Positions 3,001 to 39,409 of a DNA stretch of 64,000 nucleotides are shown here, in pieces. Below the pieces are notes generated by a model that was given only the letters and a program-made list of their open reading frames with translations, did not search any database and was not told where the DNA came from. Origin of the DNA: Thermodesulfobacteriota bacterium (GTDB taxonomy: Bacteria > Desulfobacterota > Desulfobacteria > Desulfobacterales > SURF-7); the NCBI GenBank assembly GCA_049320885.1, contig JBMORA010000001.1, positions 306,622 to 370,621 of the forward strand, given 5' to 3'. The translations under genes were made by a program, and so were the position numbers. Each line of letters starts with the position of its first letter. Position 1 is the first letter of the stretch.

Positions 3001-3538
3001 CGTAGCCCTGGACATTCAAACCGGCCGGGCAGGCCAGACGGCAGGGGGCCTTGTCCGCTTTCTCGATGGCATAGCCGCCCGGCATGCCCTGGGGATAGAG
3101 TTTATAGGCGGCCTTGCGGGTTTGCAATCCCTGGTCGAATTCGCTGGGCAGGGTCACCGGACAGACCTTGGCGCATTCGCCGCAGGCCGTGCATTTATCA
3201 AGCTCCACAAACCGCGGTTGAACTATCAGGGTAACCTGAAAATTTCCGGCCTCGCCGCTGACGGTTTCGACTTCCGCGAGGGTGTGGAGATCGATATTCA
3301 GGTGCCGGCCAGCCTCCACCAGTTTCGGTGAGACGATGCACATGGAGCAGTCGTTAGTGGGGAAGGTTTTGTCCAATTGGGCCATGACGCCGCCGATGGC
3401 CGACCGGCTCTCCACCAGATGCACCAGAAATCCGGCTTCCGCCAGATCCAGGGAGGCCTGGATCCCGGCGATGCCGCCGCCCACCACCATCACCGCTCCA
3501 ACCGCTTTCTGTTTGTCCAAATCGGGTACCTGCGTCAT
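1..3538 (-). CDS. hdrL: HdrL-type large heterodisulfide reductase A-like flavoprotein (HdrA with an inserted GltD/NfnB-like NAD(P)H oxidoreductase domain); 3' end outside the window
   Basis: Manual translation from ATG at 3538: MTQVPDLDKQKAVGAVMVVGGGIAGIQASLDLA...LDKTFPTNDCSMCIVSPKLVE...CTACGECAKVCP...APCRLACPAG...GSGPAGL...GGGNVAVD...CVGSRD...YCSSVCCM...HGAVILATG. The frame is open to position 2, so it is missing from the ORF track (no stop codon in the window). Confidence 0.9.
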   Translation of the reverse strand, partial: MTQVPDLDKQKAVGAVMVVGGGIAGIQASLDLAEAGFLVHLVESRSAIGGVMAQLDKTFPTNDCSMCIVSPKLVEAGRHLNIDLHTLAEVETVSGEAGNFQVTLIVQPRFVELDKCTACGECAKVCPVTLPSEFDQGLQTRKAAYKLYPQGMPGGYAIEKADKAPCRLACPAGLNVQGYVQMVKQGKYAEALRIIMEELPLPGVLGRICPHGCEEACRRCQVDKPLAIRDLKRLAADQYDPRKIDIPRLKDRPEKVAIIGSGPAGLSAAYHLARKGIRSVIYEALPKPGGMLRVGIPDHRLPPEVLDREIEVITNLGVEIHCNSPLGPDRTIDDLFASGYQAVYLAMGAHQGIQLGIPGEKAHGVIQGVDFLRELNLAGTIKAGRRLAVIGGGNVAVDVSRSAVRLGAGAVTILYRRTRAEMPAWEEEIRAAESEGVRIEYLTAPQEVLVQDGEVVGLRCIRMELTDADSSGRRRPVPVPGSEYDMEIDQLIPAIGQRPDISALEDAAGVSLSRWGTVATDPVTFATARKGVFAGGDLQTGPWIAIGAIAAGREAAESIIRYLDGRDLAAGREKMVPDNPVHRSVPEGEPVKVRAAMPELPLPERRGNFREVELGYTPDQGRMEAERCLNCGYCSECLQCVDACLAKAVNHDMRPLRTTIAVGAIILAPGFVSFDPGPHAPYGYATHPNVVTSLEFERLLSASGPFQGHLVRPSDHREPDKIAWLQCVGSRDINQCDHEYCSSVCCMYAAKQTVIAKEHSVKPLDAAVFYMDLRTFGKEFDRYCRRAEAEHGIRFIRSRVHTVEPMPDGNLRLRYVTEAGEIVEEIFDMVVLSVGLTPVAGSVRLAGVLGIELNEHGFARTGDLAPVSASRQGVFVCGAFQGPKDIPQSVMEASAAAADAARLLAPVRNSLTRVRELPPEKDFSNEPPRIGVFVCNCGINIGGVADVPAVREYARHLPHVEHVEDNLFTCSQDNQDRMKQVLVEKGINRVVVASCSPRTHESLFQETIREAGLNPYLFEMANIRDQNTWVHMHQPETATAKAKDLVRMAVAKAAHIEPLHQVTLGVEPSVLVIGGGVAGMEAALGVADQGYQTYLVERSGELGGVALGLSRTWQGEEVRFYVENLIRRIHKNPRVRLFLHTETVDFSGILGNFKTELITGKGRLTSMAVKHGAVILATG

Positions 3539-3584
3539 CGTCCCTCCTGCCAAGGCCAGATCGTGTCGTGCGTTTCTGGAATGT

Positions 3585-4022
3585 CTAACAGGCGGCCGCC
3601 GCTTCCTCCACCTTTCTCCTCTGGGTTGCCGGACCAAGAGTCTTCACCGCCGCGATCACCTGGTTGGCGACTTCGGCGAATTTGACCCCTTCGGCGGAAG
3701 AAATCCAGGAGAAATGCAGGCGTCCGGGCTCCACGCCGGTATGTTCCAACAAATTTTTCAGCAGGGCGAATTTACGGCGGGCATAGTAATTGCCAGTGAG
3801 ATAATGACAATCACCGGGGTGACACCCGGAAACCCAGACCCCGTCGGCGCCCTTGCGCAGGGCCGCAAGGATCAGTTTCGGACTGATCCGTCCGGAACAG
3901 GGCACCCGGATCACCCGCATGTTGGGCGGGTACTGAAACCGGCTCACCCCGGCCAGATCAGCGGCGCCGTAACTGCACCAGTTGCATAAAAACGTAATGA
4001 TCTTCGGTTCGAAATCGTTCAT
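3585..4022 (-). CDS. mvhD: MvhD/FlxD-like [2Fe-2S] hydrogenase iron-sulfur subunit (all-Cys form)
   Basis: FEPKIITFLCNWCSYGAADLAG, RVPCSGR and GCHPGDCHY motifs; lies between two hdrA-family genes. Confidence 0.93.
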   Translation of the reverse strand: MNDFEPKIITFLCNWCSYGAADLAGVSRFQYPPNMRVIRVPCSGRISPKLILAALRKGADGVWVSGCHPGDCHYLTGNYYARRKFALLKNLLEHTGVEPGRLHFSWISSAEGVKFAEVANQVIAAVKTLGPATQRRKVEEAAAAC

Positions 4023-4050: not shown

Positions 4051-7000
4051 TCACGCGCATTCGATCATCGCCATAATCTGAGATTCCTCGAAACCTTTTA
4101 ACCGCAATGCTCCGGAGCGGCAGGAAGCCACGCAGGCCCCGCAACCCTTGCAGAGCACCGGATTGATTTCCGCCCTGCCCGCAAAGGGGCCGTCCGTCCT
4201 CAGAGAGGGCGCGTTGTAGGGACAGACGGCCACACAAACCCCGCAGCCGCTGCAATCCATTGGCGCCGAATACGCCACGGTTCCGCTGGTGCGGATGGTT
4301 TTCTGGGCCAGCAACCGGGTGGCGCCGGAGGCGGCGGCCTGGGCCTGGGCGATGGATTCGTCAATGGGCTTGGGATAATGGGCCAGTCCGCACAGGAACA
4401 CGCCGTCGGTGGCGAAATTGGAGGGGGCCAGTTTGACGTGGGCTTCGGCGAAAAAACCGTCGGCGTTCATGGGTACCTTGAAGAAGCGGGCCAGTTGTTC
4501 GTCCCTGTACGGCAAAACCGCCGCGGCCAGGGTCAGCAGATCGGCCTCGATCCGCAGCGGTTTTTTCAGGATATGATCCAGGACTTCGATTTCCAGACCG
4601 TTTTCCGCAACCCGCACCCCGGGTTTGTTCTCAAGGCTGAAACGGATGAAAACAACGCCTATTTCCCGGGCCGTCTGATACAATTTCTCGCGCTCGCCGT
4701 AGGTGCGGATATCCCGGTACAACACGAAAACGTTCATCTCCGGATTCATTTCCTTCAGATGGATCGCCGCGGCCACGCTGTGGGTGCAACAGATCCGCGA
4801 GCAGTATGGTCTTTGCGGCTCCCGGGAACCCACGCATTGAATAAAGACCGCCGTCTTCACCTCCCGGAGGGCTGGATCGCGTCGGCGCAGCCTTTCATCC
4901 AATTCCAGGGCGGTGAGCACCCGCGGGTCGTCGCCATAGCCGTATTCCGCGGGAAGGCTTTCCGTGGCGCCGGTGGCGATGACGGCCACTCCGTGGCGAA
5001 TGGTTTCCGTCCTGCCCGCCTGGTCCACGGTGGTGTCGAAATTGCCCACGAATCCGTCCACCCGGGTCAATCGGGCTTTCAGCAGGACGCGGATGCCGGG
5101 ATGGTTGGTGACGGCGATGCGGATCGCATCCAGACCGTCCTGAACCGATTCCCCCCAGGCGGTCTGGTACAACCGGTTGGCCTGCCCCCCCAGTTGACCT
5201 TCCCGTTCGATCAAGTGAACCGGATACCCCTGATCCGCCAAGGCCAACGCGGCGCTCATGCCGGAGAGTCCACCGCCGATCACCAGCGCATTTGGGTCGA
5301 TTTCCAGCTGGGCCTCCTCCAACGCCTGGTATTGGGCGACCTTGGCCGCAGCCATGCGCACCAGGTCCTTGGCTTTTTCCGTGGCGGCCAGAGGATATTC
5401 CTTGTGCACCCAGGAGCCATGGTTGCGGATGTTGACCATTTCAAACAAGTATTTGTTCAGTCCGGCGTTCAGCAGGGTTTCCTGGAATAAGGGATCGTGT
5501 GTTCTGGGCGTACAGGCGGCCACCACGATACGGTTCAGGTTCTTTTCCTCGATCAGACGGCTGATGGCGTCCTGGGTGTCCTGGGAACAGGAATACATGT
5601 TGTCGCTGACGTATTCCACAAAGGGCAATCCGGCTGCGTAATCGCGCACCGCGGGCACGTCGATGACGCCGCCGATGTTGATGCCGCAATGACAGACAAA
5701 CACCCCGATGCGGGGCCGTTCACCGTAAATGGTACGCTCGGGCCGCGGGGTGCTGGCGCGGGTCAGGGCATAGCGGCTGCCGGAAAGCGAAATACCAGCC
5801 CGCATGGCGGCCGCTCCGGCCTCCACGACGGTCTGGGGGATGTCCTTTGGGCCCTGGAAAGCGCCGCACACATAAATCCCCGGCCGGGAAGTCGACACCG
5901 GATCGAAAGAAGTAGTCCGGCAAAATCCGGAATCCGTGAGGGATACCCCCAGCTTGCCCGCCAGGCCGCGGACATCTTCCTGAATTTCCATACCAACGGA
6001 CAGGACCACGATATCGAAAACCTCCCGGGTCCACTTGCCGGTTTGCTCATCCATGTAGTCCAACACCTGACCTTTTCCCTCGCCGGTTTCGGGAAAGACC
6101 GAATGGACCTTGCAGCGCACAAAGCGGATGCCGTATTTCTCCCGGGCCTCGTTGTAGCAACTTTCAAAACCCTTCCCGTGGGTACGCATGTCCATATAGA
6201 AAATGGCGCATTCCAGATCCGGTTCATGCTCCTTGGCGATGATGGCCTGTTTAATGGCGTACATGCAGCAGACCGAGGAGCAATGGCTGTTGTCGCAGGT
6301 ATTCAAATCGCGGGAACCCACGCATTGCAGCCAGGCGATACGTTTGGGCTCCGCATGGTCGGACAGGCGCACCACGTGGCCCTGGTTGGGCCCCGAAGCC
6401 GACAGCAGGCGTTCGAATTCGATGGAGGTGACCACATCCGGATTGTTGTCATAGGAATAGATCAGTTTCCCCGCGGGATCATAGGCCTTGAATCCGGGAG
6501 CCAGAATGATGGCCCCTACATTCAGGATGATATTCCGATCCTTGTCGTCATAGTTGATGGCTCCCGCCGGGCAGGCCTTTTCACAGTTGCCGCATTTCCC
6601 CTTAGTCATGCGGATGCAATACCGCTCATCGATCGCATATTTTAATGGAACAGCCTGGGGATACTGGACATAAACGGCCTTGCGTTTGATCAGGCCCCGG
6701 TTGTACTCGTCGACGACTTTTTTGGGGCATTTTTCGGCGCAGGCGCCGCAGGCGATGCATTTTTCCATGTCCACGTAGCGGGCCTTGCGGAAGACATCCA
6801 CCTGAAAATTTCCCTGCTCGCCGCTGACATCCTTGATTTCCGCCAGGGTGATCAGTTCGATGTTCATATGCCGGCCCACCTCCACCAGCTTGGGGGACAT
6901 GATGCACATGGAACAGTCATTGGTGGGGAAGGTTTTGTCCAACTGGGACATGACGCCGCCGATGGAAGCGTTCTTCTCGATCATGTAGACATAATAACCG

Positions 7001-7083
7001 GAATTGGCCAGATCCAGGGCTGCCTGGATACCGCCGATGCCGCCGCCGGCGATCAGGACTGCTCCCGTGGTTTGCTTTGACAT
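4051..7083 (-). CDS. hdrA: Heterodisulfide reductase subunit A family protein, 1010 aa (all-Cys form)
   Basis: GGGIGG FAD motif, LDKTFPTNDCSMC, CVGSRD, CSSVCCM, duplicated HdrA halves, C-terminal 2x[4Fe-4S] motifs. Confidence 0.93.
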   Translation of the reverse strand: MSKQTTGAVLIAGGGIGGIQAALDLANSGYYVYMIEKNASIGGVMSQLDKTFPTNDCSMCIMSPKLVEVGRHMNIELITLAEIKDVSGEQGNFQVDVFRKARYVDMEKCIACGACAEKCPKKVVDEYNRGLIKRKAVYVQYPQAVPLKYAIDERYCIRMTKGKCGNCEKACPAGAINYDDKDRNIILNVGAIILAPGFKAYDPAGKLIYSYDNNPDVVTSIEFERLLSASGPNQGHVVRLSDHAEPKRIAWLQCVGSRDLNTCDNSHCSSVCCMYAIKQAIIAKEHEPDLECAIFYMDMRTHGKGFESCYNEAREKYGIRFVRCKVHSVFPETGEGKGQVLDYMDEQTGKWTREVFDIVVLSVGMEIQEDVRGLAGKLGVSLTDSGFCRTTSFDPVSTSRPGIYVCGAFQGPKDIPQTVVEAGAAAMRAGISLSGSRYALTRASTPRPERTIYGERPRIGVFVCHCGINIGGVIDVPAVRDYAAGLPFVEYVSDNMYSCSQDTQDAISRLIEEKNLNRIVVAACTPRTHDPLFQETLLNAGLNKYLFEMVNIRNHGSWVHKEYPLAATEKAKDLVRMAAAKVAQYQALEEAQLEIDPNALVIGGGLSGMSAALALADQGYPVHLIEREGQLGGQANRLYQTAWGESVQDGLDAIRIAVTNHPGIRVLLKARLTRVDGFVGNFDTTVDQAGRTETIRHGVAVIATGATESLPAEYGYGDDPRVLTALELDERLRRRDPALREVKTAVFIQCVGSREPQRPYCSRICCTHSVAAAIHLKEMNPEMNVFVLYRDIRTYGEREKLYQTAREIGVVFIRFSLENKPGVRVAENGLEIEVLDHILKKPLRIEADLLTLAAAVLPYRDEQLARFFKVPMNADGFFAEAHVKLAPSNFATDGVFLCGLAHYPKPIDESIAQAQAAASGATRLLAQKTIRTSGTVAYSAPMDCSGCGVCVAVCPYNAPSLRTDGPFAGRAEINPVLCKGCGACVASCRSGALRLKGFEESQIMAMIECA

Positions 7084-7159: not shown

Positions 7160-8467
7160 CTAGTATCCCGGCAGATTCACTTCCGCCAAATCCGGCCCAA
7201 GATAGGCGCGTTCGTTTTCACCCAGGATGCCCAGGGAAAGCGCGATGATCGTCCACAAATGCACCGTCCGATACGCTCCCTTGCCGAAATGATGCCCCAA
7301 CTCATCAATCTGGGCATGACAGTTATGGCACGGCGTAATGACATAGGGTACGCCGGTGCGGCTGATCTGCTCATGTTTCAGTCTCCCGTAATGCAGCCGG
7401 GCATCCTTGAAACCGGACTGAAGATAGCCGCCGCCACCGCCGCAACAGTAATTGTTGGATTTGTTCGGCCACATCTCGATGACATTCTCCGCCCCCACGC
7501 AGGCTGCCGTGACAAAGCGCAGTTCATCGGCCAGGGTGTCGCCGAAGCCCTTGCGCACCTGGTTGCAGGGATCCTGAACGGTGAATTTCACCTGCAGTTC
7601 CTTGTTCCAGGAAGCATCGACCTTGAGCTTTCCCTCCCGGATCCATTTGGCGTAGTAGGAAACCATGGGGGCGATCTCCAGGTCGGTTTCGATCTTGTGC
7701 CGCTTCTGCCCCATCCAGACCGAAAACGTGGAATGACCGCATTCGGTGTTCAGGTATACCTTGCACCCTAAATTCATGGCCTGTTTCAGGGTCTTTTCCG
7801 TGATGGTCTTCCAGCCCTCGTCATCGGCCAGGAACATGCAATAGTTCTCGCCGCCCCAGCCGGTGCAGCTGTAAGTCCAATCCGCGCCGGAAAGGTGCAG
7901 GATCTTCCAAAGGGGCGCCATTTCCTCGGGTTCGGTGACCGGTTCCCGAGAATTCTGACTCAAAAAGAAATGCGCTCCCTGCTTGTCGATGGGTGCTTCC
8001 AGGTTTTCCCAGCCCGGCTGGTTGGTCCGGACTTCCTCCAGCATATCCTCCACCACAAACCGGAAATCCTCCTCCGGGGTCCCCATGGCGCTGCAGCTGT
8101 CGTTCTTCAGGGCCATGTCGCAGGACCCCAGAATCCCCTTGGGCCGTTCTTCCCGGGGCCACAATTTGCGGCCCTCGAACACCATGGCGGCGATATCGAT
8201 GTTCATCGGACAGACATAACTGCAACGCTTGCACATGCTGCACAGCCAGACCCAGGGATGTTTGGTCAGTTCCCGGTCCATTCCCAACGCCACCATGCGG
8301 ACGAATTTGCGCGGGTCCATGTCTTCCAGACCGGAGGCTGGGCAGCCCGATGCGCAAGCGCCGCAGGTCAAACATAAATTCAGATTGGCGCCCTTGGGCA
8401 ATATGCTCAACAGCTTGTTTTTGAATTGCGGTTTCCAGTCTTTTTGAATCACGATCGGATCATTCAT
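7160..8467 (-). CDS. HdrC/HdrD-like Fe-S oxidoreductase (4Fe-4S dicluster plus CCG domain)
   Basis: CLTCGACASGCP, CSMCKRCSYVCP, NTECGH, QDPC, YCCGGGGG, TPCHNC; ATG at 8467 preceded by AAAGGAAAG. Confidence 0.88.
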   Translation of the reverse strand: MNDPIVIQKDWKPQFKNKLLSILPKGANLNLCLTCGACASGCPASGLEDMDPRKFVRMVALGMDRELTKHPWVWLCSMCKRCSYVCPMNIDIAAMVFEGRKLWPREERPKGILGSCDMALKNDSCSAMGTPEEDFRFVVEDMLEEVRTNQPGWENLEAPIDKQGAHFFLSQNSREPVTEPEEMAPLWKILHLSGADWTYSCTGWGGENYCMFLADDEGWKTITEKTLKQAMNLGCKVYLNTECGHSTFSVWMGQKRHKIETDLEIAPMVSYYAKWIREGKLKVDASWNKELQVKFTVQDPCNQVRKGFGDTLADELRFVTAACVGAENVIEMWPNKSNNYCCGGGGGYLQSGFKDARLHYGRLKHEQISRTGVPYVITPCHNCHAQIDELGHHFGKGAYRTVHLWTIIALSLGILGENERAYLGPDLAEVNLPGY

Positions 8468-8664
8468 CCTGCTTTCCTTTCCCATATCGAAATAAATCCT
8501 CACCGGTATCCTGGAGCATCCATGAAGGACATGTTCCGGAGACCGATCTCTTGGCGTAAACGACGGGCGCGGCAGCGCTGAAAAAATGCCGAATGGTAAC
8601 AGCCAGTCTGAATCACCGAATGAAAAAAAGGAAACGCAGGAAAACGGAATCGATCTTCAGGCCG

Positions 8665-8736
8665 CTACTTCACCACCTGCCGAACCCGGGCAGGCACGCT
8701 GCAACACGCTCAAGTAAAGCCTGTAAACCGATGCAT
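8665..8736 (-). CDS. Putative leader peptide with in-frame UGA: MHRFTGFT(U)ACCSVPARVRQVVK*
   Basis: RBS GGGAG (8746-8742), ATG at 8736, TGA at 8712-8710, hairpin CCTGCC/GGCAGG starting 15 nt after the TGA, TAG at 8667-8665; homologous to the + strand leader at 8969. Confidence 0.7.
8676..8694 (-). promoter_or_regulatory. SECIS-like hairpin of the left leader
   Basis: CCTGCC-CGGGTTC-GGCAGG; G-containing apical loop about 21 nt after the UGA. Confidence 0.7.
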
Positions 8737-8856
8737 GGAAACTCCCGAAAGGACTTGCCGTACCCACTCCATGCGGCAATGCGCCGCACAGGCAATGGAA
8801 CGGATGGATTCACGCAATAAATTCCGGGTCGTCATAGCATGAAATCCGGCGGCGTA

Positions 8857-8910
8857 TCAAATCGATAGTTTCAATGCATATGTTTTTCCGGATTGGAATT
8901 ATCAATTTGA
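8857..8910. promoter_or_regulatory. Imperfect inverted repeat (19-bp arms, 16-bp spacer) next to putative divergent -35 elements
   Basis: TCAAATCGATAGTTTCAAT (8857-8875) versus the reverse complement of 8892-8910, TCAAATTGATAATTCCAAT: 16/19 identical. The arms run into TTGATA (- strand) and TTGACC (+ strand). Confidence 0.6.
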
Positions 8911-8968
8911 CCATTTCCGGATATCCATAATAAGAAGCATGACCATCGAATCGAAGCAGGAGCTGTCC

Positions 8969-8995
8969 ATGCAGACATTTTTCGGCTTTACCTGA
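8969..8995 (+). CDS. Putative leader peptide MQTFFGFT-UGA (readthrough frame stays open to 9286)
   Basis: RBS AGGAG 8958-8962, ATG 8969, TGA 8993-8995, hairpin GCGCCG/CGGCGC starting 15 nt after the TGA. Confidence 0.7.
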   Translation: MQTFFGFT

Positions 8996-9010
8996 GGGTT
9001 GTTGGAAACT

Positions 9011-9027
9011 GCGCCGAGTTGCGGCGC
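9011..9027 (+). promoter_or_regulatory. SECIS-like hairpin of the right leader
   Basis: GCGCCG-AGTTG-CGGCGC; G at loop position 2; loop starts 21 nt after the UGA. Confidence 0.7.
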
Positions 9028-9108
9028 TGGGGTACGGCTGAAAATCACCATCGAATCGATTGTTCCCGGTTTTTTCCGGCGCCGGCGCCCCATGCAAGAA
9101 CAGATGAC

Positions 9109-9200
9109 AGGGGCAATGGTGCTGGGCACCCCGCGGTCTTCAAAACCGTCGGCCTCGCCTGAAAATCGAGGAGGAGGTTCGATTCCCCTTGCCCCTTCCA
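9109..9200 (+). tRNA. selC*: UCA-anticodon tRNA with modified 8/4 fold and U73: selC*-type tRNA-Cys(UCA), a tRNA-Sec mimic
   Basis: Acceptor stem AGGGGCAA/TTGCCCCT (8 bp, A1:U72); D-arm GGTGC/GCACC; anticodon arm GCGGT-CTTCAAA-ACCGT (TCA at 9140-9142); long variable arm CCTCG/CGAGG; T-stem GG(A bulge)GG/CCCC with TTCGATT loop; discriminator T9197; encoded CCA. Confidence 0.88.
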
Positions 9201-9225
9201 AACCAGGAAAACCGTTTCGAACGCT

Positions 9226-11151
9226 ATGGACAGATATTATACCATCGGTGTGGCCGGCCATGTGGACCACGGCAAGACTTCCCTGATTCGCTGCCTGACG
9301 GGTATCGATACGGACCGCCGGACGGATGAAAAACTCCGCGGCATCTCCATCGATGCGGGGATCGCGCCGCTGGATATGCCCGACGGACACCGTATCGCCC
9401 TGGTGGATGTGCCCGGGCATACGGATTACCTGAAAAACACCGTGCGCGGACTCCATGCCGTCGACAGCGCGGTTCTGGTGGTGGCCGCCGATGACGGCAT
9501 CATGCCCCAGACAGTGGAGCATCTGGAAATTTTACGCTTTTTCAAGGTCAGCAAGGGGTTCGTAGTATTGAGCAAGACCGATCTCGTGGATCCGGAAACC
9601 AGGGAAATAGCCATGCTGGAAATCGAGGATGCCGTGAAGGGGACTTTTCTAGAGGGCTGCCCCATCGTCCCCTTCTCTGCTGTCCAAGGCGCAGGCAGGG
9701 AGGAAGTCCTGCAGCAGATCATCCAAACCACCGATGACGAAAAACGAACCGTGACGAAAGATTTTTTCCGGATGTGGATCGATCAAGTGCGGATCCGCAA
9801 GGGATTCGGAACCGTAGTCAGCGGGACAATCCTGTCCGGCAGCCTTCGCAAGGACGACGCGGTTCAACTGTTGCCGGCCGGAACCGTCGTCCGGGCGCGG
9901 ACCATCGAATCCCACGGCCGCAGCATCGAACAGGCCTGTCCGGGACAGCGCGTGGGCGTTAATCTGCACAAAATACCGGCAACCGATGTCGTCAGGGGAA
10001 TGGCCCTGTCGCAACCGGACGCCATCATTCCAAGCTATCTGCTGAATGCGGATCTCCGACTTCTCGGCAACACCGGGAAAAATCTGAAAAGCCGACAACG
10101 GGTGAAACTGCACATCGGCGCTTCCGTCACCAGCGCCATGATCGTTCTCATGGATGCGAAGGAACTGACGCCGGGCGGACAATGCCTGGCCCAGTTGCGC
10201 CTGCTGAAACCGGCGGCCGCAAGGTCACGCGATCCTTTTGTAGTCACCCCGCTGAACCGCAATACCGTCATCGGCGGCGGAACCGTTCTGGAACCGACAC
10301 AGGAGAAATACCGTAGCGCCAAATCGGCCGGAATCGTTCCGATGCTGTCGGCTCTCCGGAGCGGCAATCTTGCCGGATATTTGGATTTGTTTTTCGGCCA
10401 TCAGCAAACCCACGCTTTCTCCGCCCGGGAACTCACGGAAAAGACCGGATGGCCTCTCCCGCAACTCGAAGCGGAAATCAACGCCCGGGTGCGGAAAGGG
10501 GACCTGATTTATATCAAGGGGCTGGGCGCCCTTGCAAAAACGGAGTTCCGCCGACTCAAGGACGAAGTCCTTTTCTCCGTCGAAAGGCTTTTCCAGAGCA
10601 ACGCCGCCAAAAAAATCATCCATGAAAAGGAGATCGCCCATGATTTGTCCGCTCTTCTGGAAGAAAAACTGCTGCAAGGCATCATCGAGGAATGGTGTCA
10701 TGATGAAAAACTGACAAAAACCGGGGGCGGATTCCTCAACCCGTATTACAATGAGGCTCCGGCCACGGTTCTTTCCCCTCAGATGGAACAAACGATCCGG
10801 CTGCTCCTGGAGCATGCCCGGTCCAGCGGAATGTCGCCTTTCAGCGCCGACAGTTTCTGGAAGGCTCACGAAAAAAAACTGAACAAGCCGAGAGTCCAGC
10901 AGGCCATGGAATACCTGGCCGAGCGGAAACAGTTGATCCGCCTGCGGGACAACCGTTTTCTCGATCCGGAATCCCTGGAAATCATCAAGGAACGGGTCAG
11001 AAGCGCCATCCAGGCCAAAGGCTTCATCACCTTATCAGACAGCAGGGAAATATTAGGATACGGCCGCTGGGGCGGGGCGCCGGTATTGGACCATCTGGAT
11101 AAAATCGGCTTCACCGTCCGGATCGGGGACAAACGCCTGATCCGGCAATGA
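9226..11151 (+). CDS. selB: SelB-family translation elongation factor, divergent (selB*-like)
   Basis: GHVDHGKT, DVPGH and SKTD GTPase motifs, GFGTVVSGT, C-terminal winged-helix region; starts 25 nt after the UCA tRNA. Confidence 0.92.
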   Translation: MDRYYTIGVAGHVDHGKTSLIRCLTGIDTDRRTDEKLRGISIDAGIAPLDMPDGHRIALVDVPGHTDYLKNTVRGLHAVDSAVLVVAADDGIMPQTVEHLEILRFFKVSKGFVVLSKTDLVDPETREIAMLEIEDAVKGTFLEGCPIVPFSAVQGAGREEVLQQIIQTTDDEKRTVTKDFFRMWIDQVRIRKGFGTVVSGTILSGSLRKDDAVQLLPAGTVVRARTIESHGRSIEQACPGQRVGVNLHKIPATDVVRGMALSQPDAIIPSYLLNADLRLLGNTGKNLKSRQRVKLHIGASVTSAMIVLMDAKELTPGGQCLAQLRLLKPAAARSRDPFVVTPLNRNTVIGGGTVLEPTQEKYRSAKSAGIVPMLSALRSGNLAGYLDLFFGHQQTHAFSARELTEKTGWPLPQLEAEINARVRKGDLIYIKGLGALAKTEFRRLKDEVLFSVERLFQSNAAKKIIHEKEIAHDLSALLEEKLLQGIIEEWCHDEKLTKTGGGFLNPYYNEAPATVLSPQMEQTIRLLLEHARSSGMSPFSADSFWKAHEKKLNKPRVQQAMEYLAERKQLIRLRDNRFLDPESLEIIKERVRSAIQAKGFITLSDSREILGYGRWGGAPVLDHLDKIGFTVRIGDKRLIRQ

Positions 11152-11202: not shown

Positions 11203-12480
11203 ATGAGCGAAGAGTATACAAGCATGTGGCAATCGTTGGGACTCGACCTGGCTGCCCATGACGCCTTGCTGAATGTCCTGGGGCAGGCCTACCAGGACAT
11301 TTACCTGGCCCAGAAGAACCGGCCCGATGGAATGAAGTACTTCGACTTCGTGATGAGCGAAGTCCATGGCCTGCGCATCAAGGAACTGCTGGAGGAGAAA
11401 GCGGCTGGCAGAAAAATCGTCGGCAGTTATTGCGTCTTCGTTCCGGAGGAAATCGTGCTGGCGGCCAACGCCACCCTGGTGGGCCTGTGCGCCGGAGCCG
11501 ATTTCGCCCTGGAGGAGGCGGAAAAACTGCTGCCGCGCAATACCTGTTCCCTGATCAAATCCACCTTCGGCTTCAAACTGGGCAAGGTCTGCCCCTATCT
11601 GGAATCCGCCGACATGGTGGTGGGGGAGAACACCTGCGACGGCAAAAAGAAAGCCTACGAAATTTTGGACACCCTCATTTCCAACTTGTATGTCATGGAT
11701 CTGCCCCAGGTGAAATCCGTCGCCGGACGCGAACTCCTGAAAACCGAATACTACCGATTCAAGGCAGCCCTGGAAAAACTGACGGGCGTTACCGTGGATA
11801 AGCAGGCCCTGGAAAAAGGTATCAAAACCGTCAACGAAAAACGCAAGGCTGTTCACCGCCTGAACCGGCTGCGCGCCGCCGACCCGGCCCCCATATCCGG
11901 CCTGGACGCCCTGTTGGTCAATCAGGTGTTTTTCTATGACAACCCGGCCCGCTTCACTTCCTCCGTGAACATGATCTGTGACGAACTGGAGGGCCGCATC
12001 CGGGAGAAGTCCGGCATTTCCTCCGGAAAGCGTCCCAGAATCCTGGTATCCGGCTGTCCCATGGCCGTGCCCAACTGGAAACTTCCCTGGATTGTGGAAA
12101 CCTCCGGCGCGGTCATCGTGGGTGAGGAATCCTGCGTGGGCGAACGCGGCAGCAGAAACCTGGTGAACGGGGACGGCACTACCCTGGATGATCTGATGGA
12201 AGCCGTCATCGACCGGTACTTCGCCATCGACTGCGCCGTGTTCACGCCCAATCAAAGCCGGCTCGATCATATCGTTGAAATGGCCGCCGCCTACAAGGCG
12301 GACGGCGTCATTCACTATGGCCTGCAATTTTGCCAACCCTATTTGATGGAGTCCCTGCCCGTTGAAAAAGCCTTGAAGGATAAAGGGATTCCGGTCCTGC
12401 GGGTGGAAACCGACTACGGCCCGGAAGACGCCGGTCAGCTCAAGACCCGGGTGGAGGCCTTCCTGGAGATGCTCAAATAA
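11203..12480 (+). CDS. Double-cubane-cluster anaerobic reductase (2-hydroxyacyl-CoA dehydratase family, DCCP-like)
   Basis: N-terminal MWQSLGLDLAAHD...YFDFVMSEVHGLRIKEL, YCVFVPEE, ENTCDGKKK, EESCVG, DCAVFTPN, QFCQPY, ETDY...GQLKTRVEAF. Confidence 0.85.
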   Translation: MSEEYTSMWQSLGLDLAAHDALLNVLGQAYQDIYLAQKNRPDGMKYFDFVMSEVHGLRIKELLEEKAAGRKIVGSYCVFVPEEIVLAANATLVGLCAGADFALEEAEKLLPRNTCSLIKSTFGFKLGKVCPYLESADMVVGENTCDGKKKAYEILDTLISNLYVMDLPQVKSVAGRELLKTEYYRFKAALEKLTGVTVDKQALEKGIKTVNEKRKAVHRLNRLRAADPAPISGLDALLVNQVFFYDNPARFTSSVNMICDELEGRIREKSGISSGKRPRILVSGCPMAVPNWKLPWIVETSGAVIVGEESCVGERGSRNLVNGDGTTLDDLMEAVIDRYFAIDCAVFTPNQSRLDHIVEMAAAYKADGVIHYGLQFCQPYLMESLPVEKALKDKGIPVLRVETDYGPEDAGQLKTRVEAFLEMLK

Positions 12481-12524: not shown

Positions 12525-13664
12525 CTACCCACGCAGTTCTTTCACCGCCCGGACGACCACCTCCGCTGCCCGGTCGATCTCGCCTACGGTGGTCATCCTC
12601 CCGGTGGTGAACCGCAGCGTCCCCTTGGCCCACGCCTCGGGGAGCTTCATGGCCGTCAGCACATGGGAGATTTCCACATGGTCCGAATGGCAGGCGGCCC
12701 CGGCGGATGCGGCGACCTCAAGACCGATCCGCTCCAGAATGCGGCTGGCCTCCAGCTGGAAGAAAGAAATGCTGGCGGTGTTGGGCAACCGCAGTTCCGG
12801 ATGGCCGTTGAACCGGATATCCGTGAGTTCCGTTCCTAGAATGCCCTCCAAACGATTCCGCATGGCTTGCATGTGGCCCGCGCCGCTTTCCATAGTGGCG
12901 GCGGCGAGTTCACAGGCCTTGCCGAGGCCCACGATGCCCATCACGTTTTCGGTCCCTGCCCGGCTTCCTCTTTCCTGTCCCGCTCCGTGACAGAAAACCT
13001 TCGGCTCCACCCCGTTACGGATATACAGGCCGCCGACTCCTTTGGGCGCATACAGTTTATGACCCGCGAAGGATAGCAGATCCACCCCCAACGCGTCTGC
13101 TTCCACCCGGATCTTTCCAAGGGATTGAGCCGCATCCGTATGCATCAGAACCCCGGCTTTGCGGGCCAGGGCGGCAATTTCCGCAACCGGCTGGATGGTT
13201 CCCACTTCGTTGTTGGCATGCATGATGGAAATCAGGATGGTGTCCGGAGTAATTGCCGCGGCCACATCGGATGGGGCTACCATTCCGGTTTCATCCACCG
13301 GCAGATAAGTGACCGAGAATCCAAGGCCTTCCATATACCTACAGGTTTCAAGCACCGCCGGATGCTCCACCAGACTGGTTATCAAATGCTTGCCGCGGGC
13401 GAAACGGTTGCCGGCGATGCTCTTGATGGCCTGATTAATGGATTCGGTGCCGCCGCTGGTGAAAATAATTTCTTCCGCGGTGCAATCGATCAAACCGGCC
13501 ACCTGCCGCCGGGCCGCCTCCACAGCCTGTTTGGGACGGATTCCATACCAATGGGAACTGGACGGGTTGCCGAATTCCGTTTCCAGATAAGGCCTCATGG
13601 CGGCGATGACTTCCGGCGCATGCGGCGTGGTCCCGTTGTAATCCAGATAAATGGGTTTGGTCAT
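12525..13664 (-). CDS. Cysteine desulfurase / selenocysteine lyase family (NifS/IscS group I)
   Basis: IYLDYNGTTP, FGNPSS, FTSGGTE, HTDAAQ, GHKLYAPKGVG, catalytic loop ASAGAACHS. Confidence 0.92.
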   Translation of the reverse strand: MTKPIYLDYNGTTPHAPEVIAAMRPYLETEFGNPSSSHWYGIRPKQAVEAARRQVAGLIDCTAEEIIFTSGGTESINQAIKSIAGNRFARGKHLITSLVEHPAVLETCRYMEGLGFSVTYLPVDETGMVAPSDVAAAITPDTILISIMHANNEVGTIQPVAEIAALARKAGVLMHTDAAQSLGKIRVEADALGVDLLSFAGHKLYAPKGVGGLYIRNGVEPKVFCHGAGQERGSRAGTENVMGIVGLGKACELAAATMESGAGHMQAMRNRLEGILGTELTDIRFNGHPELRLPNTASISFFQLEASRILERIGLEVAASAGAACHSDHVEISHVLTAMKLPEAWAKGTLRFTTGRMTTVGEIDRAAEVVVRAVKELRG

Positions 13665-13956
13665 GGGTTACCCTTTTCCAGCATGAAAACGCGGTCTACA
13701 AACTTGTAAATGTCCTCCACTTCTGCTTGCAGCGCCTCATCCGTCTTTCGTCAGGGAGATATCATAAAACATCGGCATTGTCTAATATCTCCAGAATGGT
13801 GGATGCCTATAGAATTCATGAATGAAGGTGCGATTTATAATTCATATTATCTATTTGTATATCCTTTCATTCCATGGTTTTATCTATTTTTCAGCCAAAT
13901 CGTCAAGCCGGCCGGGAGTTAGGAACGGATATCAACAATCAAGAAAAGGATTCGTC

Positions 13957-15969
13957 ATGAACAATTGCAGGGCAGAAGTTTTCAGGTTGTTTTTTCTAGT
14001 AGTAATCGCTGTATCGCTGATCACGGGATGCGGCAGTTCTTCGGACTCGACGGACGGTGGTAGTCCGGCGCCGGGGAACGACACGGGCAAGCCCACGGCA
14101 GCCCAGACCGGCGACCTGTCATTGTTTCCCAATGCCGATCTGCTGGCCTCGGCCACGGATCTGGTCACCGACGAAGGCGTGATGAAAAACATGGCTGAGT
14201 GGGTCATTGTCGATACTAGGTCCGCCGCCGACTATGCCGCGGGGCATATCCCGGGCGCCATCAACCTTCAATGGGATTCCTTTGCCGTCCGGGACGGCTC
14301 CACGCCCAAAGGCAGCCTGCTGCCCGTGGACAGCCTCGCGGCGGTCCTGGGAGCCGCGGGACTGACAGAGGACACCGCCGTGATTTTTTATGACGACACC
14401 CTGGCTTCCCGGGGTTCGGCCGGACGTTTATTCTGGATGCTGGAGTATCTCGGCAACACCCGTTGCAGAATCCTCAACGGCGGCTGGGACAAATGGGCCG
14501 CCGATGACCTCCCGACGGAAACCACCGTCAACACCCTTCCCGCCGCCGTATTCGTACCGGACGTCGATGCCTCCGTTCGGGCCGATAAAACCGGAATCGC
14601 CGCCAGACTCAATCATGACGATTTTGTCCTGGTGGACACCCGCACCGATGAGGAATTCACGGGCTGGCGCCTGTATGACGAAGCCCGCGAAGGGCATGTG
14701 AAAGGAGCGGTCCACCTGCCCTTCGCCTGGTGCTTCAACGCGGACAAATCGGTCCTGAGCCATGCGGCTCTGAAAACCCTGCTGGAATCGCGGGGTATCA
14801 CGGGCGACAAGGAAATCGCGGCCTATAGCACGGACGGTGTCCGCAGCGGGTTCCTGTATTTCCTGGGACGTCTGATGGGGTATGACGTCATCGCCAATTA
14901 CGACGCTTCCATCCGGGAATGGGCCGAAGGCGATGACACAACATACCCCATGGAAAAAATGGCAGGATATTCCGAGCTGGTCTATCCGGCGTGGGTCAAG
15001 GCCCTGATCGATTATCACGCCCCGGGCAGCGCCACCGAAGCACCGCCGGGATATCTCCATGATCGTGGTCATCGCCATATCATCTTCGAAACCCAGTGGG
15101 GCAGCTTCGAGGACATGGCCAACGGGTGGGCGGACGACGCTTATCTGAAAGGGCATATTCCCGGCGCCGTGCATTCCAATTCGGACACTTACGAAAACGG
15201 ATTCCCCCGCTGGTTTTTGCTGCCGGAAGACCAGTTGAAGCAGGCGCTGGGCAGCATGGGCGTCACCGCCGACGCCACGGTGGTGGTGTACAGCAACAAC
15301 CCCATTTTTGCCGCCCGCCTGTGGTGGATCTTGAAATACGCGGGGGTGCAGGACGTCCGATTGCTCAACGGCGGCTATGACGCCTGGGTTGCAGCCGGCT
15401 ACGAATCCGAAACCACCGTGAACGACTCCGCGGCGGTCACCTATGACGGTTCGGTTGTACCAGGTCTGATCGCCGCAACGGATTATGTTGCGGCCAATTA
15501 TAATACCGGCGGCGCCGTCCTGGCCGATGTGCGCACCTGGGCGGAATACATCGGTGAGACCAGCGGCTACAGCTATGTCGTCAACAAGGGCCGCATTCCG
15601 GGCGCTGTCTGGGCCTATAATGCGGACAATCCGGATCGGGAATACCTGGATGATGACGGCACCCTTCGCAGCTTCACCGAGGTAAGAGGCATGTGGGCAG
15701 GTCTGGGGATTACCGCCGCGGAGGGAAGTTCAACCTTTGACCGGGAGGTCATTTTCTACTGTGGGAGCGGTTACCGCTCCAGCCTGAGCTTTCTCCATGC
15801 CCATCTGATGGGATATCAAAATGTGCGGAACTATTCGGACGGCTGGGAGGGTTGGAGCACCACCTATACCGAATCCCCCGATTATGTCGCCGATCCGGCG
15901 GTTCCCGGCAGCACGGACGGCTGGCTCCAAGACCCCTCCGGAAGACCGGTTGCCAGCGGCGCTCCCTGA
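13957..15969 (+). CDS. Four-domain rhodanese (sulfurtransferase) lipoprotein
   Basis: Lipobox LITG-C; repeated GHIPGA/GHVKGA/GRIPGA motifs; last domain IFYCGSGYRS; second domain has YSTDGVRS (Ser in place of Cys). Confidence 0.88.
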   Translation: MNNCRAEVFRLFFLVVIAVSLITGCGSSSDSTDGGSPAPGNDTGKPTAAQTGDLSLFPNADLLASATDLVTDEGVMKNMAEWVIVDTRSAADYAAGHIPGAINLQWDSFAVRDGSTPKGSLLPVDSLAAVLGAAGLTEDTAVIFYDDTLASRGSAGRLFWMLEYLGNTRCRILNGGWDKWAADDLPTETTVNTLPAAVFVPDVDASVRADKTGIAARLNHDDFVLVDTRTDEEFTGWRLYDEAREGHVKGAVHLPFAWCFNADKSVLSHAALKTLLESRGITGDKEIAAYSTDGVRSGFLYFLGRLMGYDVIANYDASIREWAEGDDTTYPMEKMAGYSELVYPAWVKALIDYHAPGSATEAPPGYLHDRGHRHIIFETQWGSFEDMANGWADDAYLKGHIPGAVHSNSDTYENGFPRWFLLPEDQLKQALGSMGVTADATVVVYSNNPIFAARLWWILKYAGVQDVRLLNGGYDAWVAAGYESETTVNDSAAVTYDGSVVPGLIAATDYVAANYNTGGAVLADVRTWAEYIGETSGYSYVVNKGRIPGAVWAYNADNPDREYLDDDGTLRSFTEVRGMWAGLGITAAEGSSTFDREVIFYCGSGYRSSLSFLHAHLMGYQNVRNYSDGWEGWSTTYTESPDYVADPAVPGSTDGWLQDPSGRPVASGAP

Positions 15970-38335: not shown

Positions 38336-39409
38336 TTGGAACAGAGACAAAATAAACAAACAACCGCCGATGGGAAACCGCGACTGACGACAACGGTCAC
38401 CGGCGCCGGTTGAGCTTCCAAATTGGCGCCAGGGGACCTGGACCGGGCACTGTGCGGGATCGAATTCCCCACGGATTCCAACGTGATCGTCGGATTGCGT
38501 CGAGCGGACGATGCGGGTGTCTACAAAATCAATGACAGCCTGGCCATTGTCCAAACCATCGACTTTTTTACGCCGATTGTCGATGACCCCTATTGGTTCG
38601 GCCAGATCGCTGCGGCCAATGCCTTGAGTGATGTGTACGCCATGGGTGGGGTTCCGAAAACGGCGCTGAACATGGTCTGCTTTCCGGTCAAAAAAATGGA
38701 TCTGGGAATACTGCGCGAAGTGATTCAAGGCGGCGCGGACAAGCTCAAGGAAGCGGATGTGGTCTTGATCGGCGGTCACAGCATCGAGGACCAGGAACTC
38801 AAATACGGCCTGTCCATCACCGGCTTTATTCACCCGGATAGAATTCTGACCAAAACCGATTTACAATCCGGTGACCGCTTGATTCTGACCAAGCCTCTCG
38901 GCACCGGTATCATTAACACGGCCATCAAGGCCGGACTGGCTCCGGCAGACCTGATCGAGAGGATCACCCGGCAGATGGCGGCCCTGAATAAAATCCCAGC
39001 AGAGGTAATGGCTGCTTTTCCGGTGCATGCCTGCACAGACGTTACTGGTTTCGGTCTTTTGGGACATCTGGCCGAAATGGTTGCCGGATCGGGCCTGGGT
39101 GTCCGCCTGTGGGCCAAATCAATACCCGTAATCCCGGAAACCCCCGCCTTCGCCGCCATGGGGCTGATTCCTGCCGGGGCCTACAAAAACAAGGAATTCA
39201 GGCAAAACATGGTGGGGTTCGCGCCGAATATTGCGGAACTCACCAAAGATATCCTTTTCGATCCACAGACGTCCGGAGGGTTGCTGATCTGCGTTGCCTC
39301 CCGGGAAGCCGAAAGCCTGTTGCACAAACTGAGGAAATGCGGCATCGACCAGGCCGCCATCATCGGAATGGTCATGGACGATCAGACATCGTCCATATCA
39401 ATTGAATAG
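38336..39409 (+). CDS. selD: Selenide, water dikinase with selenocysteine (TGA at 38411-38413)
   Basis: Upstream in-frame extension RLTTTVTGAG-U-ASKLAPGDL, then DDAGVY, DFFTPIVDDP, TDVTGFGLLGH, DPQTSGGLL; the TTG start at 38336 is tentative. Confidence 0.92.
38429..38441 (+). promoter_or_regulatory. SECIS element of selD
   Basis: CCAGG-GGA-CCTGG hairpin starting 15 nt after the Sec TGA. Confidence 0.75.

Follow-up and report, generated by a model that had tools for sequence, protein, structure and literature searches.

We analysed a 64,000-nucleotide (nt) stretch of the genome of a Thermodesulfobacteriota bacterium (Desulfobacterales; SURF-7; assembly GCA_049320885.1, contig JBMORA010000001.1, positions 306,622 to 370,621), hereafter called the window, in which two divergent operons are separated by a 232-bp gap. 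As read directly in the sequence, this gap is occupied by two related leaders, one for each operon. Both divergent transcripts begin with a Shine-Dalgarno (SD) sequence, an upstream open reading frame (uORF) of eight codons ending in TGA and, 15 nt later, a 6-bp hairpin that resembles a bacterial selenocysteine insertion sequence (SECIS). An initial annotation of this DNA had proposed these features as a selenocysteine-sensing attenuator; we confirmed them to the base, and the comparisons described below suggest that in each leader the ribosome probably senses whether UGA can still be decoded as selenocysteine (Sec). The initial annotation had placed the pair at 8665-9090, which is the correct location but slightly too narrow an extent, as the full pair of elements runs from approximately 8586 to 9092.

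The right leader element, consisting of the SD, the uORF and the helices P2 and P1, lies at 8957-9053 on the plus strand and was matched over its full length (1-102) by a covariance model, R1, with a score of 69.7 bits. Its SD, AGGAG (8958-8962), was read in the sequence 6 nt before the uORF (8969-8995; ATG 8969-8971, TGA 8993-8995), which reads ATG CAG ACA TTT TTC GGC TTT ACC TGA and encodes MQTFFGFT-UGA. Codons 3-8 form the 5' strand of P1. The SECIS-like hairpin P2, GCGCCG-AGTTG-CGGCGC, starts 15 nt past the TGA and occupies 9011-9027, with arms at 9011-9016 and 9022-9027 and the loop AGTTG. The 3' strand of P1, which we call segment 2 (GGGGTACGGCTGAAAATCACC, 9029-9049), was assigned from the minimum-energy fold and covariation, and its predicted alternative partner, segment 3 (9067-9092, -21.3 kcal/mol), is located just upstream of a tRNA gene. 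Approximately 60 nt upstream of the right uORF, the sequence ATTATCAATTTGACC (8897-8912, plus strand) resembles a -35 region and is conserved in three loci of the same genus (L008, L017 and L009); this site was not listed by our promoter scan, and its -10 spacing is unclear.

The left leader element lies at 8645-8748 on the minus strand and was also matched over its full length by R1, with 92.8 bits. Its SD, GGGAG (8742-8746), was read 5 nt before the uORF (8710-8736; ATG 8736-8734, TGA 8712-8710), which reads ATG CAT CGG TTT ACA GGC TTT ACT TGA, encodes MHRFTGFT-UGA and forms the 5' strand of P1. A 15-nt spacer (8709-8695) leads to P2, CCTGCC-CGGGTTC-GGCAGG (8676-8694; arms 8694-8689 and 8681-8676), and the 3' strand of P1 (segment 2, 8649-8675), assigned from the sequence and folds, contains a TAG (8667-8665) that would end a 23-residue Sec read-through product. 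Beyond it are a C/U-rich, G-poor tract (8621-8647), which pairs with the SD/ATG region of the downstream hdrD-like gene (8485-8463) in a single-sequence fold that is not significant (z = -0.53), and segment 3 (8586-8620), the predicted alternative partner of segment 2 at -24.4 kcal/mol. Upon alignment of the two leaders, the mean column identity was 70% over 226 columns, which bears out the proposal that they are homologous, including the similarities quoted earlier for their downstream parts.

To describe the element beyond this locus, we used R1, built from 12 aligned copies, with a match cut-off of E up to 0.01. In its own genome the model found only the two window copies, both of which were training members. 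A third exact 13-mer match in this genome (contig C14, locus L003) had no model match and, by eye, abuts the apparent end of a reverse-strand gene, and it was rejected as chance. A BLAST search with the right leader and its tRNA revealed the leader upstream of tRNA genes of the selC* type in several genera, and, in each of the three further loci from this genus, the divergent second copy. In one same-genus genome (G002, contigs C57 and C83), the whole divergent module, with its hdr leader and selC*/selB* leader, occurs twice, giving four leader copies. At the level of the order, 42 of 151 genomes matched, including the own genome, corresponding to 37 of 109 genera and 34 of 113 good-quality genomes, with 60 matches in total, all of full length and up to four per genome; besides the own genome, there were 58 full-length matches in 41 of 150 genomes. 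In a phylum-wide sample, R1 matched 11 of 151 genomes, nine of them from other orders.

A degenerate uORF pattern, applied to one genome per species, gave at least 121 loci, and 86 of the first 100 also matched the structural model. The other 14 of these 100 failed it, including every record titled as another phylum (Enterococcus, Arcanobacterium, Methanosarcinales, Peribacteria, Victivallales, Prolixibacteraceae, Hyphomicrobiales, Magnetococcales, Clostridiales and Oxydemutatoraceae). Structured copies retrieved with this narrow pattern came almost solely from records of the Desulfobacterota type, no relaxed-model search of other phyla having been made, and the matching records included the cultured strains Desulfobacter curvatus DSM 3379 (L183), Desulfobacter vibrioformis DSM 8776 (L192) and Dethiosulfatarculus sandiegensis SPR (L123 and L195). 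Judged by this distribution, the occurrence of the element is not chance, and the expectation that the leaders would be conserved in Desulfobacterota relatives upstream of selC*/selB* and of cysteine (Cys)-type hdrA/mvhD operons was borne out among the matching genomes of the order. In Rfam, tRNA-Sec was the only match in the window at the gathering threshold. Within 8300-9400, at E up to 10, there was no match to a SECIS family, the coverage of this phylum by the Rfam SECIS models not having been checked, and the other matches were at chance level (CRISPR-DR29 with 18.6 bits, sR44 and mascRNA).

The statistics on the uORF and on the structure refer to 62 distinct copies, aligned by fitting to the model. 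A TGA occupied the same column in all 62 copies and was never replaced by TAA or TAG. An in-frame start was present in 60 copies, and the uORF had exactly eight codons in 47. Among the 60 copies with a start, the antepenultimate codon encoded Gly (GGC in 43, GGT in 13, GGA in three, another codon in one), the penultimate sense codon Phe (TTT in 46, TTC in 12, another in two) and the last sense codon Thr (ACC in 32, ACT in 10, ACA in eight, ACG in six, another in four). Variation of these three codons at their third positions is the coding-type, period-3 constraint expected of a translated uORF. We also observed a second subfamily of the uORF, M-I-H-D-F-G-F-T. Genuine Sec codons of this genome follow other residues (CAM-U, VSG-U and CNY-U), and GFT therefore belongs to the leader and not to Sec decoding in general. 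The element thus contains a short leader open reading frame (ORF) with its own SD and start and with a single terminal UGA as the candidate sensing codon, as is required of an attenuator.

An in-frame UGA with a SECIS-like hairpin could also belong to a tiny selenopeptide gene, in which the uORF and its read-through extension would encode a functional Sec peptide, and many copies could yield read-through products of 19-23 residues. However, the residues after the Sec position were conserved, by eye in the aligned copies, only where the hairpin dictates them, and 21 of 62 copies had no further stop codon within the element, while its position in the remaining copies was scattered. The element was also always found in the 5' leader of selenium-related operons, and we regard the selenopeptide as the least probable of the explanations considered here.

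The distance from the UGA to P2 was 13-17 nt across the 62 copies, and was 15 nt in 40 of them and in both window copies; the P2 loop was CGGGTTY in 30 of the 62. A bacterial SECIS is characterized by a hairpin at a short fixed distance 3' of the UGA and by a G in its apical loop. The hairpins of the Sec-type hdrA/mvhD genes in the same genome start 13-16 nt after the TGA and have the loops AGGT, GGA and GGC. In addition, the Sec codon of the selD gene in the window (38411-38413) is followed at 15 nt by the hairpin CCAGG-GGA-CCTGG, in agreement with the earlier statement that its spacing equals that of the leaders. P2 therefore resembles the real SECIS elements of this genome, as had been claimed, and has the position and the G-containing loop of a bacterial SECIS; binding of SelB and insertion of Sec are predicted from these features. 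In this genus (the window, L008, L017 and L009), the P2 on the selC* side (GCGCCG-AGKTG-CGGCGC) differs from that on the hdr side (CCTGCC-CGGGTTY-GGCAGG). The hairpin of selC* leaders from other families is of the CTGCC-CGGGTTY-GGTAG type. The two P2 types might be tuned to different SelB paralogs.

A SECIS-like hairpin in a leader could act solely as a protein-binding site, so that SelB, free or loaded, would alter the fate of the leader and the UGA would be a plain stop. The SECIS features of P2 and the presence of Sec-machinery genes among the controlled genes are consistent with such an operator, and the leader of Escherichia coli selAB is reportedly a precedent. An operator, however, requires neither a TGA in 62 of 62 copies, nor its frame with a start codon, nor the SECIS distance, nor third-position variation in the preceding codons. 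We consider this explanation rather unlikely.

In the P1 helix, the uORF (codons 2-8) provides the 5' strand and the 3' strand follows P2, such that the UGA and P2 are enclosed. P1 was derived from single folds and pairing by hand and was then examined by pair counts. Nearly all of the 12 copies contained it in their minimum-energy fold, and the change from Phe to Thr in the left copy (TTC to ACA) was compensated in the 3' strand. In a plain MAFFT alignment of the 12 copies, 80.4% of the cells paired, compared with 33-51% when the partner was slid, and 12 of 20 pairs varied on both sides, which none of 500 shuffles reached. In the 62 model-aligned copies, 83.8% of the cells paired (34-51% when slid), 17 of 20 pairs varied on both sides (reached by 4 of 500 shuffles), and the covariation score was 0.424 compared with 0.213 (reached by 0 of 500 shuffles). 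P1 alone contributed 12 of 14 pairs varying on both sides, with 80.7% of its cells paired. RNAalifold on the MAFFT alignment found P2 and missed P1 because the 3' strand of P1 was misaligned. The upper part of P1, in which codons 7-8 pair with GGU/GUA, appeared in single folds; its columns are offset by one between the subfamilies and thus lie outside the alignment counts. These results indicate that P1 and P2 both covary, with double changes in 12 of 20 pairs without fitting and in 17 of 20 with it, and the covariation anticipated for relatives of the window is therefore present in the alignments.

Two covarying helices and conserved unpaired nucleotides are also what would be seen in a metabolite-binding riboswitch or a protein-bound RNA whose likeness to a uORF is fortuitous. 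Such an RNA does not explain the period-3 codon variation, the conserved SD and start or the invariant TGA, and no Rfam family for the element was found at E up to 10. We consider it very unlikely.

To act as an attenuator, the leader requires an alternative to the pairing of segments 1 (the uORF) and 2. Duplex prediction revealed that segment 2 pairs with a segment 3 located approximately 30-50 nt downstream, with a median start of 34 nt, and the sequences involved are lineage-specific yet complementary, as exemplified by ACAGGGTTTGGCCGA with TCGATCAGACTCTGT. In the window, the predicted duplexes are 8675-8649 with 8620-8586 and 9029-9049 with 9067-9092, at the energies given above. For all 60 copies, the cognate 2:3 energy had a mean of -17.7 kcal/mol, compared with -15.4 for non-cognate partners and -14.3 for shuffled segment 2. 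Among 36 representatives whose segments 2 were mutually less than 70% identical, the cognate mean was -17.7 and the non-cognate mean -15.1 kcal/mol (0 of 5000 permutations), and the excess was -2.5 kcal/mol after row and column centring (0 of 5000), with a GC-matched permutation also giving 0 of 5000. These energies lend moderate rather than decisive support to an architecture of mutually exclusive 1:2 and 2:3 pairings.

We next consider how the alternative pairings might be read out. No intrinsic terminator was found on the relevant strands within 8350-9300, and in the relatives terminator-like sites were present in five of 54 leader-to-gene intervals compared with 7.4 expected, i.e., without enrichment. 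The term attenuator in the initial annotation is thus appropriate as regards the leader ORF and the 1:2 helix, but does not extend to an intrinsic terminator of the trp type, which is absent from the window and not enriched in relatives. In the 80 nt after the element, C exceeded G in 57 of 60 copies (median C/G 1.68), compared with 37 of 60 (median 1.12) in upstream control tracts. Additionally, a rho gene is present in the genome (Rho_RNA_bind, 123.9 bits, within a 415-residue frame), so that the factor for a Rho-type mechanism is encoded and the leader is followed by untranslated RNA rich in C and poor in G. A Rho-dependent end is most plausible because an intrinsic terminator is absent, and we favour, by inference from these sequences, a read-out by premature Rho-dependent termination that would be relieved by 2:3 pairing.

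The right operon begins with a tRNA gene (9109-9200, plus strand) that ARAGORN called as tRNA-SeC (tca) and that scored 52.3 bits with Rfam tRNA-Sec. It has the anticodon UCA, the pair A1:U72, the discriminator U73 and an encoded CCA, with the 3' end ...TTGCCCCT-T-CCA. It is followed by selB* (9226-11151, plus strand; 641 residues; Pfam GTP_EFTU, SelB-wing_3 and Beta-barrel_SelB), a second SelB paralog that is 31.5% identical to the other SelB of the genome on contig C27. The canonical tRNA-Sec is on contig C12, with G73, its own promoter-like sequence and no leader; the SelA gene is on contig C34, and a Sec-type selD lies in the window with its TGA at 38411-38413. The class of selC* tRNA(Cys), or tRNAReC, followed by selB* is described in a passage of Mukai et al. 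(PMC5389517), and an operational rule for tRNAReC (tRNASec-like, with a UCA or GCA anticodon and discriminator U73) is given in part of PMC13582414. On the basis of the U73 and UCA of the tRNA, the adjacent second selB and the canonical selA, selB, selC and selD located elsewhere, the right operon is a selC*/selB* pair by sequence, as the initial annotation had stated. Charging of the selC* tRNA with Cys and its delivery to UGA by SelB* are traits of the class and are predicted here.

Other features lie around these genes. An HGD-D family gene (11203-12480, plus strand) follows selB*, and the same family is found downstream of the leader in eight of 54 related loci. This protein, similar to the D-component of 2-hydroxyacyl-CoA dehydratase and often accompanied by a BcrAD-type activator, recurs after selB* or directly after the leader in the window and in L053, L054, L061, L062, L079, L082, L098, L104 and L112. 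The neighbourhood is also rich in genes of sulfur and selenium trafficking, namely a class-V aminotransferase of the cysteine desulfurase or Sec-lyase type (12525-13664, minus strand), a protein with four rhodanese domains (13822-15969, plus strand) and the Sec-type selD. This selD occupies 38411-39409 (plus strand), and no obvious canonical start codon was noticed upstream of its Sec codon.

The left operon, on the minus strand, begins with an hdrD-like gene (7160-8467) with a 4Fe-4S dicluster and a CCG domain; its likely start is the ATG at 8467, approximately 240 nt downstream of the left P2, which gives 435 residues as in relatives. It is followed by an hdrA-like gene (4051-7083), mvhD (also called FlpD; 3585-4022) and a large fusion of hdrA with an NAD(P)-oxidoreductase (hdrL-like; 2-3637), which runs past the window edge. 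We compared the HdrA, MvhD and HdrL-like proteins of the window with their own genome by tblastn. The HdrA-like protein has Cys60 (TNDCSMC) where paralogs on C1, C14, C16 and C43 have an in-frame TGA, and the paralog on C1, approximately 5 kb outside the window, is 63% identical to it. In MvhD, Cys67 corresponds to TGA in two paralogs, of which one is 70.6% identical and adjoins a Sec-type hdrA, and the hdrL-like protein has Cys100 where one own-genome paralog has TGA. Five further leader-headed hdrA/mvhD genes in relatives also have Cys at the Sec positions. By these comparisons, the left operon is the Cys version of Sec-containing paralogs, in keeping with its earlier description as Cys-type hdrA/mvhD. 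The Sec-type hdrA/mvhD operon on C1 (375801-379338), approximately 5 kb past the right end of the window, is the closest paralog of the leader-headed Cys operon (63% and 70.6%); it has no leader match, since the genome-wide search with the model gave only the two copies in the window.

To examine which genes follow the leaders in relatives, we surveyed no more than three ORFs per match on the same strand, each 90 residues or longer, together with tRNAs, downstream of the 58 order matches outside the own genome. Four of the 58 were at contig ends and 54 were assessable; the categories overlap. A tRNA of the selC* type directly followed the leader in 12 of the 54 loci, and a SelB paralog was present in eight. 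Genes for hdrD-like proteins, hdrA or mvhD were downstream in 25, and molybdopterin enzymes of the formate dehydrogenase (FDH) type in seven, all as uninterrupted ORFs. Sulf_transp (YedE-like) proteins were found in six, with Se/S-carrier, TusA or porin partners, HGD-D in eight, DUF1573 in seven, sets of SBP_bac_11, MauE or rhodanese in four, and SelD in two. One weak match without a start codon precedes a class-V aminotransferase. The same gene families were found downstream of leaders in other orders. We conclude from gene content that the downstream genes form a selenium regulon of uptake, Sec-machinery and Cys-isoform genes, of the composition expected of a response to selenium starvation. 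Both leader-headed selD genes that we examined (L084 and L097, in genomes G081 and G020) are of the Sec type, with GSG-U-ASK. The description of the targets as selenium-independent backup genes thus applies to the Cys-type hdr genes and to selC*/selB*, but not to all. A restart after total loss of selenium would consequently need insertion of Cys at the selD UGA, which the co-regulated selC*/selB* could provide.

Degenerate, selC*-like pseudo-tRNAs were observed between the leader and a porin/yedE or hdrD operon (L050, approximately 570-660; L056, approximately 560-640), without an ARAGORN call. These remnants suggest that the leaders spread by duplication of a leader-selC* module in which the tRNA then decayed.

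The frequent association with selC* raises an autoregulatory homeostat, in which the leader UGA would be read mainly by SelB* with Cys-tRNA(selC*), as feedback on selC*/selB* output. Its proximity to selC*-type tRNA genes (directly downstream in 12 of the 58 related copies) and the difference between the selC*-side and hdr-side P2 of this genus, as if the former were tuned to another factor, would fit this idea. In contrast, most copies head other genes (yedE-type, selD, fdh and hdr), the selC* leaders of other families share their P2 type with the remaining leaders, and in some genomes the matches are near no selC* in the loci examined. We therefore consider the homeostat unlikely.

Taken together, we favour the reading that in each leader the translating ribosome acts as a sensor of how far the cell can decode UGA as Sec, with a rough probability of 0.68; the sensing and the direction of control, i.e., switching on when selenium is scarce, are inferred from the anatomy of the leader and the content of the operons. 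When selenium is replete, the first ribosome would insert Sec at the UGA by means of Sec-tRNA(Sec)-SelB, proceed and depart. P1 would then close, the C-rich, G-poor RNA including segment 3 would remain single-stranded, and transcription or expression of the operon would be curtailed, with Rho as the most plausible agent. Under selenium scarcity, the ribosome would dwell at the UGA and occupy segment 1, and the nascent FFGFT, or SelB tethered on P2, may hinder release factor 2 (RF2). Because segment 1 would be held, segment 2 would pair with segment 3 and the operon would be expressed. In the window, the outcome would be that a Cys-inserting UGA decoder (selC*/selB*) and Cys isoforms of HdrA and MvhD are switched on together.

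A more specific form of this sensor is tentative, and we would put it at somewhat less than an even chance. Here, an arrest-type leader of eight residues (..FFGFT) would stall the ribosome at a UGA resolvable solely by SelB-Sec-tRNA, and the starvation regulon would be centred on selC*/selB* reading selenoprotein UGAs, including that of selD, as Cys until selenium returns, thereby solving the restart of Sec synthesis from zero.

Several observations weigh against the sensor reading. RF2 normally terminates at UGA, and a long pause is therefore conjectural. The stop codon that would end read-through is not conserved, lying in the 3' arm of P2 in 22 of 62 copies and nowhere within the element in 21, so that the next move of a ribosome that reads through is undefined. 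Conservation of FFGFT could partly reflect RNA pairing rather than the peptide. SelB* with Cys-tRNA might read the leader UGA, in which case the sensor would report total UGA-recoding capacity. As to the structure, the 62-copy alignment is model-fitted and the genomes are kin, and the shuffle counts therefore overstate significance; the single-sequence folds are no better than those of shuffled sequences (z = 0.03 and -0.53). The 2:3 pairing is moderately specific, as the cognate partner was the best in five of 36 representatives and within the top tenth in 11, with a median rank of 8.5, and it was absent from the minimum-energy folds of both window leaders when the uORF was forced single-stranded. 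Lastly, when the uORF was masked, the predicted SD accessibility increased by more than 0.1 in just 11 of the 36 loci and did not change in the own left leader, with no matched control; the mean gain was 0.10, and no locus fell below -0.1.

Among known systems, the element is best filed, on its anatomy, as a putative ribosome-mediated attenuator that responds to a recoded stop codon. In trpL and hisL, the ribosome on a short leader reports the supply of charged tRNA, and the leader ORF is segment 1 of the exclusive pairings 1:2 and 2:3. The present element is similar in having a translated-looking short leader whose ORF is segment 1 of the 1:2 and the predicted 2:3 pairings. In contrast to trpL and hisL, there is a single UGA, which is also a stop codon and needs SelB and a SECIS hairpin, this hairpin is nested within 1:2, there is no 3:4 intrinsic terminator, and the targets include a tRNA gene. 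In E. coli, a SECIS-like element in the selAB 5' leader, reportedly described by Thanbichler and Bock in 2002 in EMBO J, is said to tie expression to SelB and to act on the initiation of selA translation, with neither a uORF nor a UGA. A SECIS-type leader hairpin thus heads genes of the Sec machinery in both cases, whereas the leaders of the present study have an invariant, in-frame UGA and head a far larger regulon. Stop-codon arrest leaders (tnaC and speFL) control Rho-dependent termination, and mgtL of mgtA belongs to the Rho attenuators with a uORF and alternative helices. The leaders described here share with these a small uORF with conserved residues beside the stop, and a ribosome at or near the stop that would decide the access of Rho to C-rich RNA. 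They differ in that the signal would be a recoding complex of aminoacyl-tRNA and factor and not a small molecule bound in the tunnel; arrest and Rho dependence are predicted from sequence.

In Treponema primitia, translation of an in-gene UGA/SECIS couples selenium supply to transcription of fdhF(Sec), according to a portion of PMC3892789, whose introduction states that no natural attenuation system responding to a rare amino acid had been reported. In both organisms, decoding of UGA/SECIS would couple selenium to transcript elongation. In T. primitia, however, the UGA is part of the selenoprotein gene itself, which is switched on by selenium, whereas here a dedicated leader would turn off selenium-free back-ups and uptake genes. 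The right operon resembles the selC*/tRNAReC systems in its tRNASec-like gene with U73 and UCA followed by a second selB, and the addition here is the leader that heads the pair. The words SECIS and leader do not occur in the main text of PMC5389517, and the partitioning between the tRNASec and tRNAReC systems was called unclear in 2026 in a passage of PMC13582414. A section of PMC11097638 reports that in Methanococcus maripaludis selenium starvation induces the HrsM regulon of Cys isoforms, yedE and a molybdate-type binding protein; there, HrsM is an archaeal repressor of the LysR type and its signal is stated to be unknown. The functional logic is the same and the gene content overlaps, although HrsM is an archaeal protein repressor and the present system is a bacterial RNA leader.

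A full-text literature search covering main texts found no published description of a UGA/SECIS leader, consistent with the apparent novelty suggested by the initial annotation for a Sec-codon leader-peptide attenuator, and none of a bacterial selenium sensor. The terms "leader", "attenuat" and "riboswitch" are all absent from a 2026 review of selenoproteomes (PMC13188914), a 2026 preprint on intergenic features mentions in-gene SECIS elements only, and in a 2025 review of Rho, SelB appears solely among the Rho-associated proteins whose effect is unknown.

If the proposed reading is true, the element would represent the first leader-peptide switch to respond to a recoded stop codon. A defined element of 100 nt with clear mutational predictions would make selenium sensing directly testable, and the Sec-responsive part would be usable in engineering. 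No dedicated selenium transporter is known, as stated in a passage of PMC11097638, and through guilt by association the regulon nominates uptake genes (porin, YedE-type, molybdate-type binding protein and DUF1573) as well as new players such as the HGD-D/BcrAD pair. For the organisms that carry it, the leader would explain when the tRNAReC/SelB* system is used.

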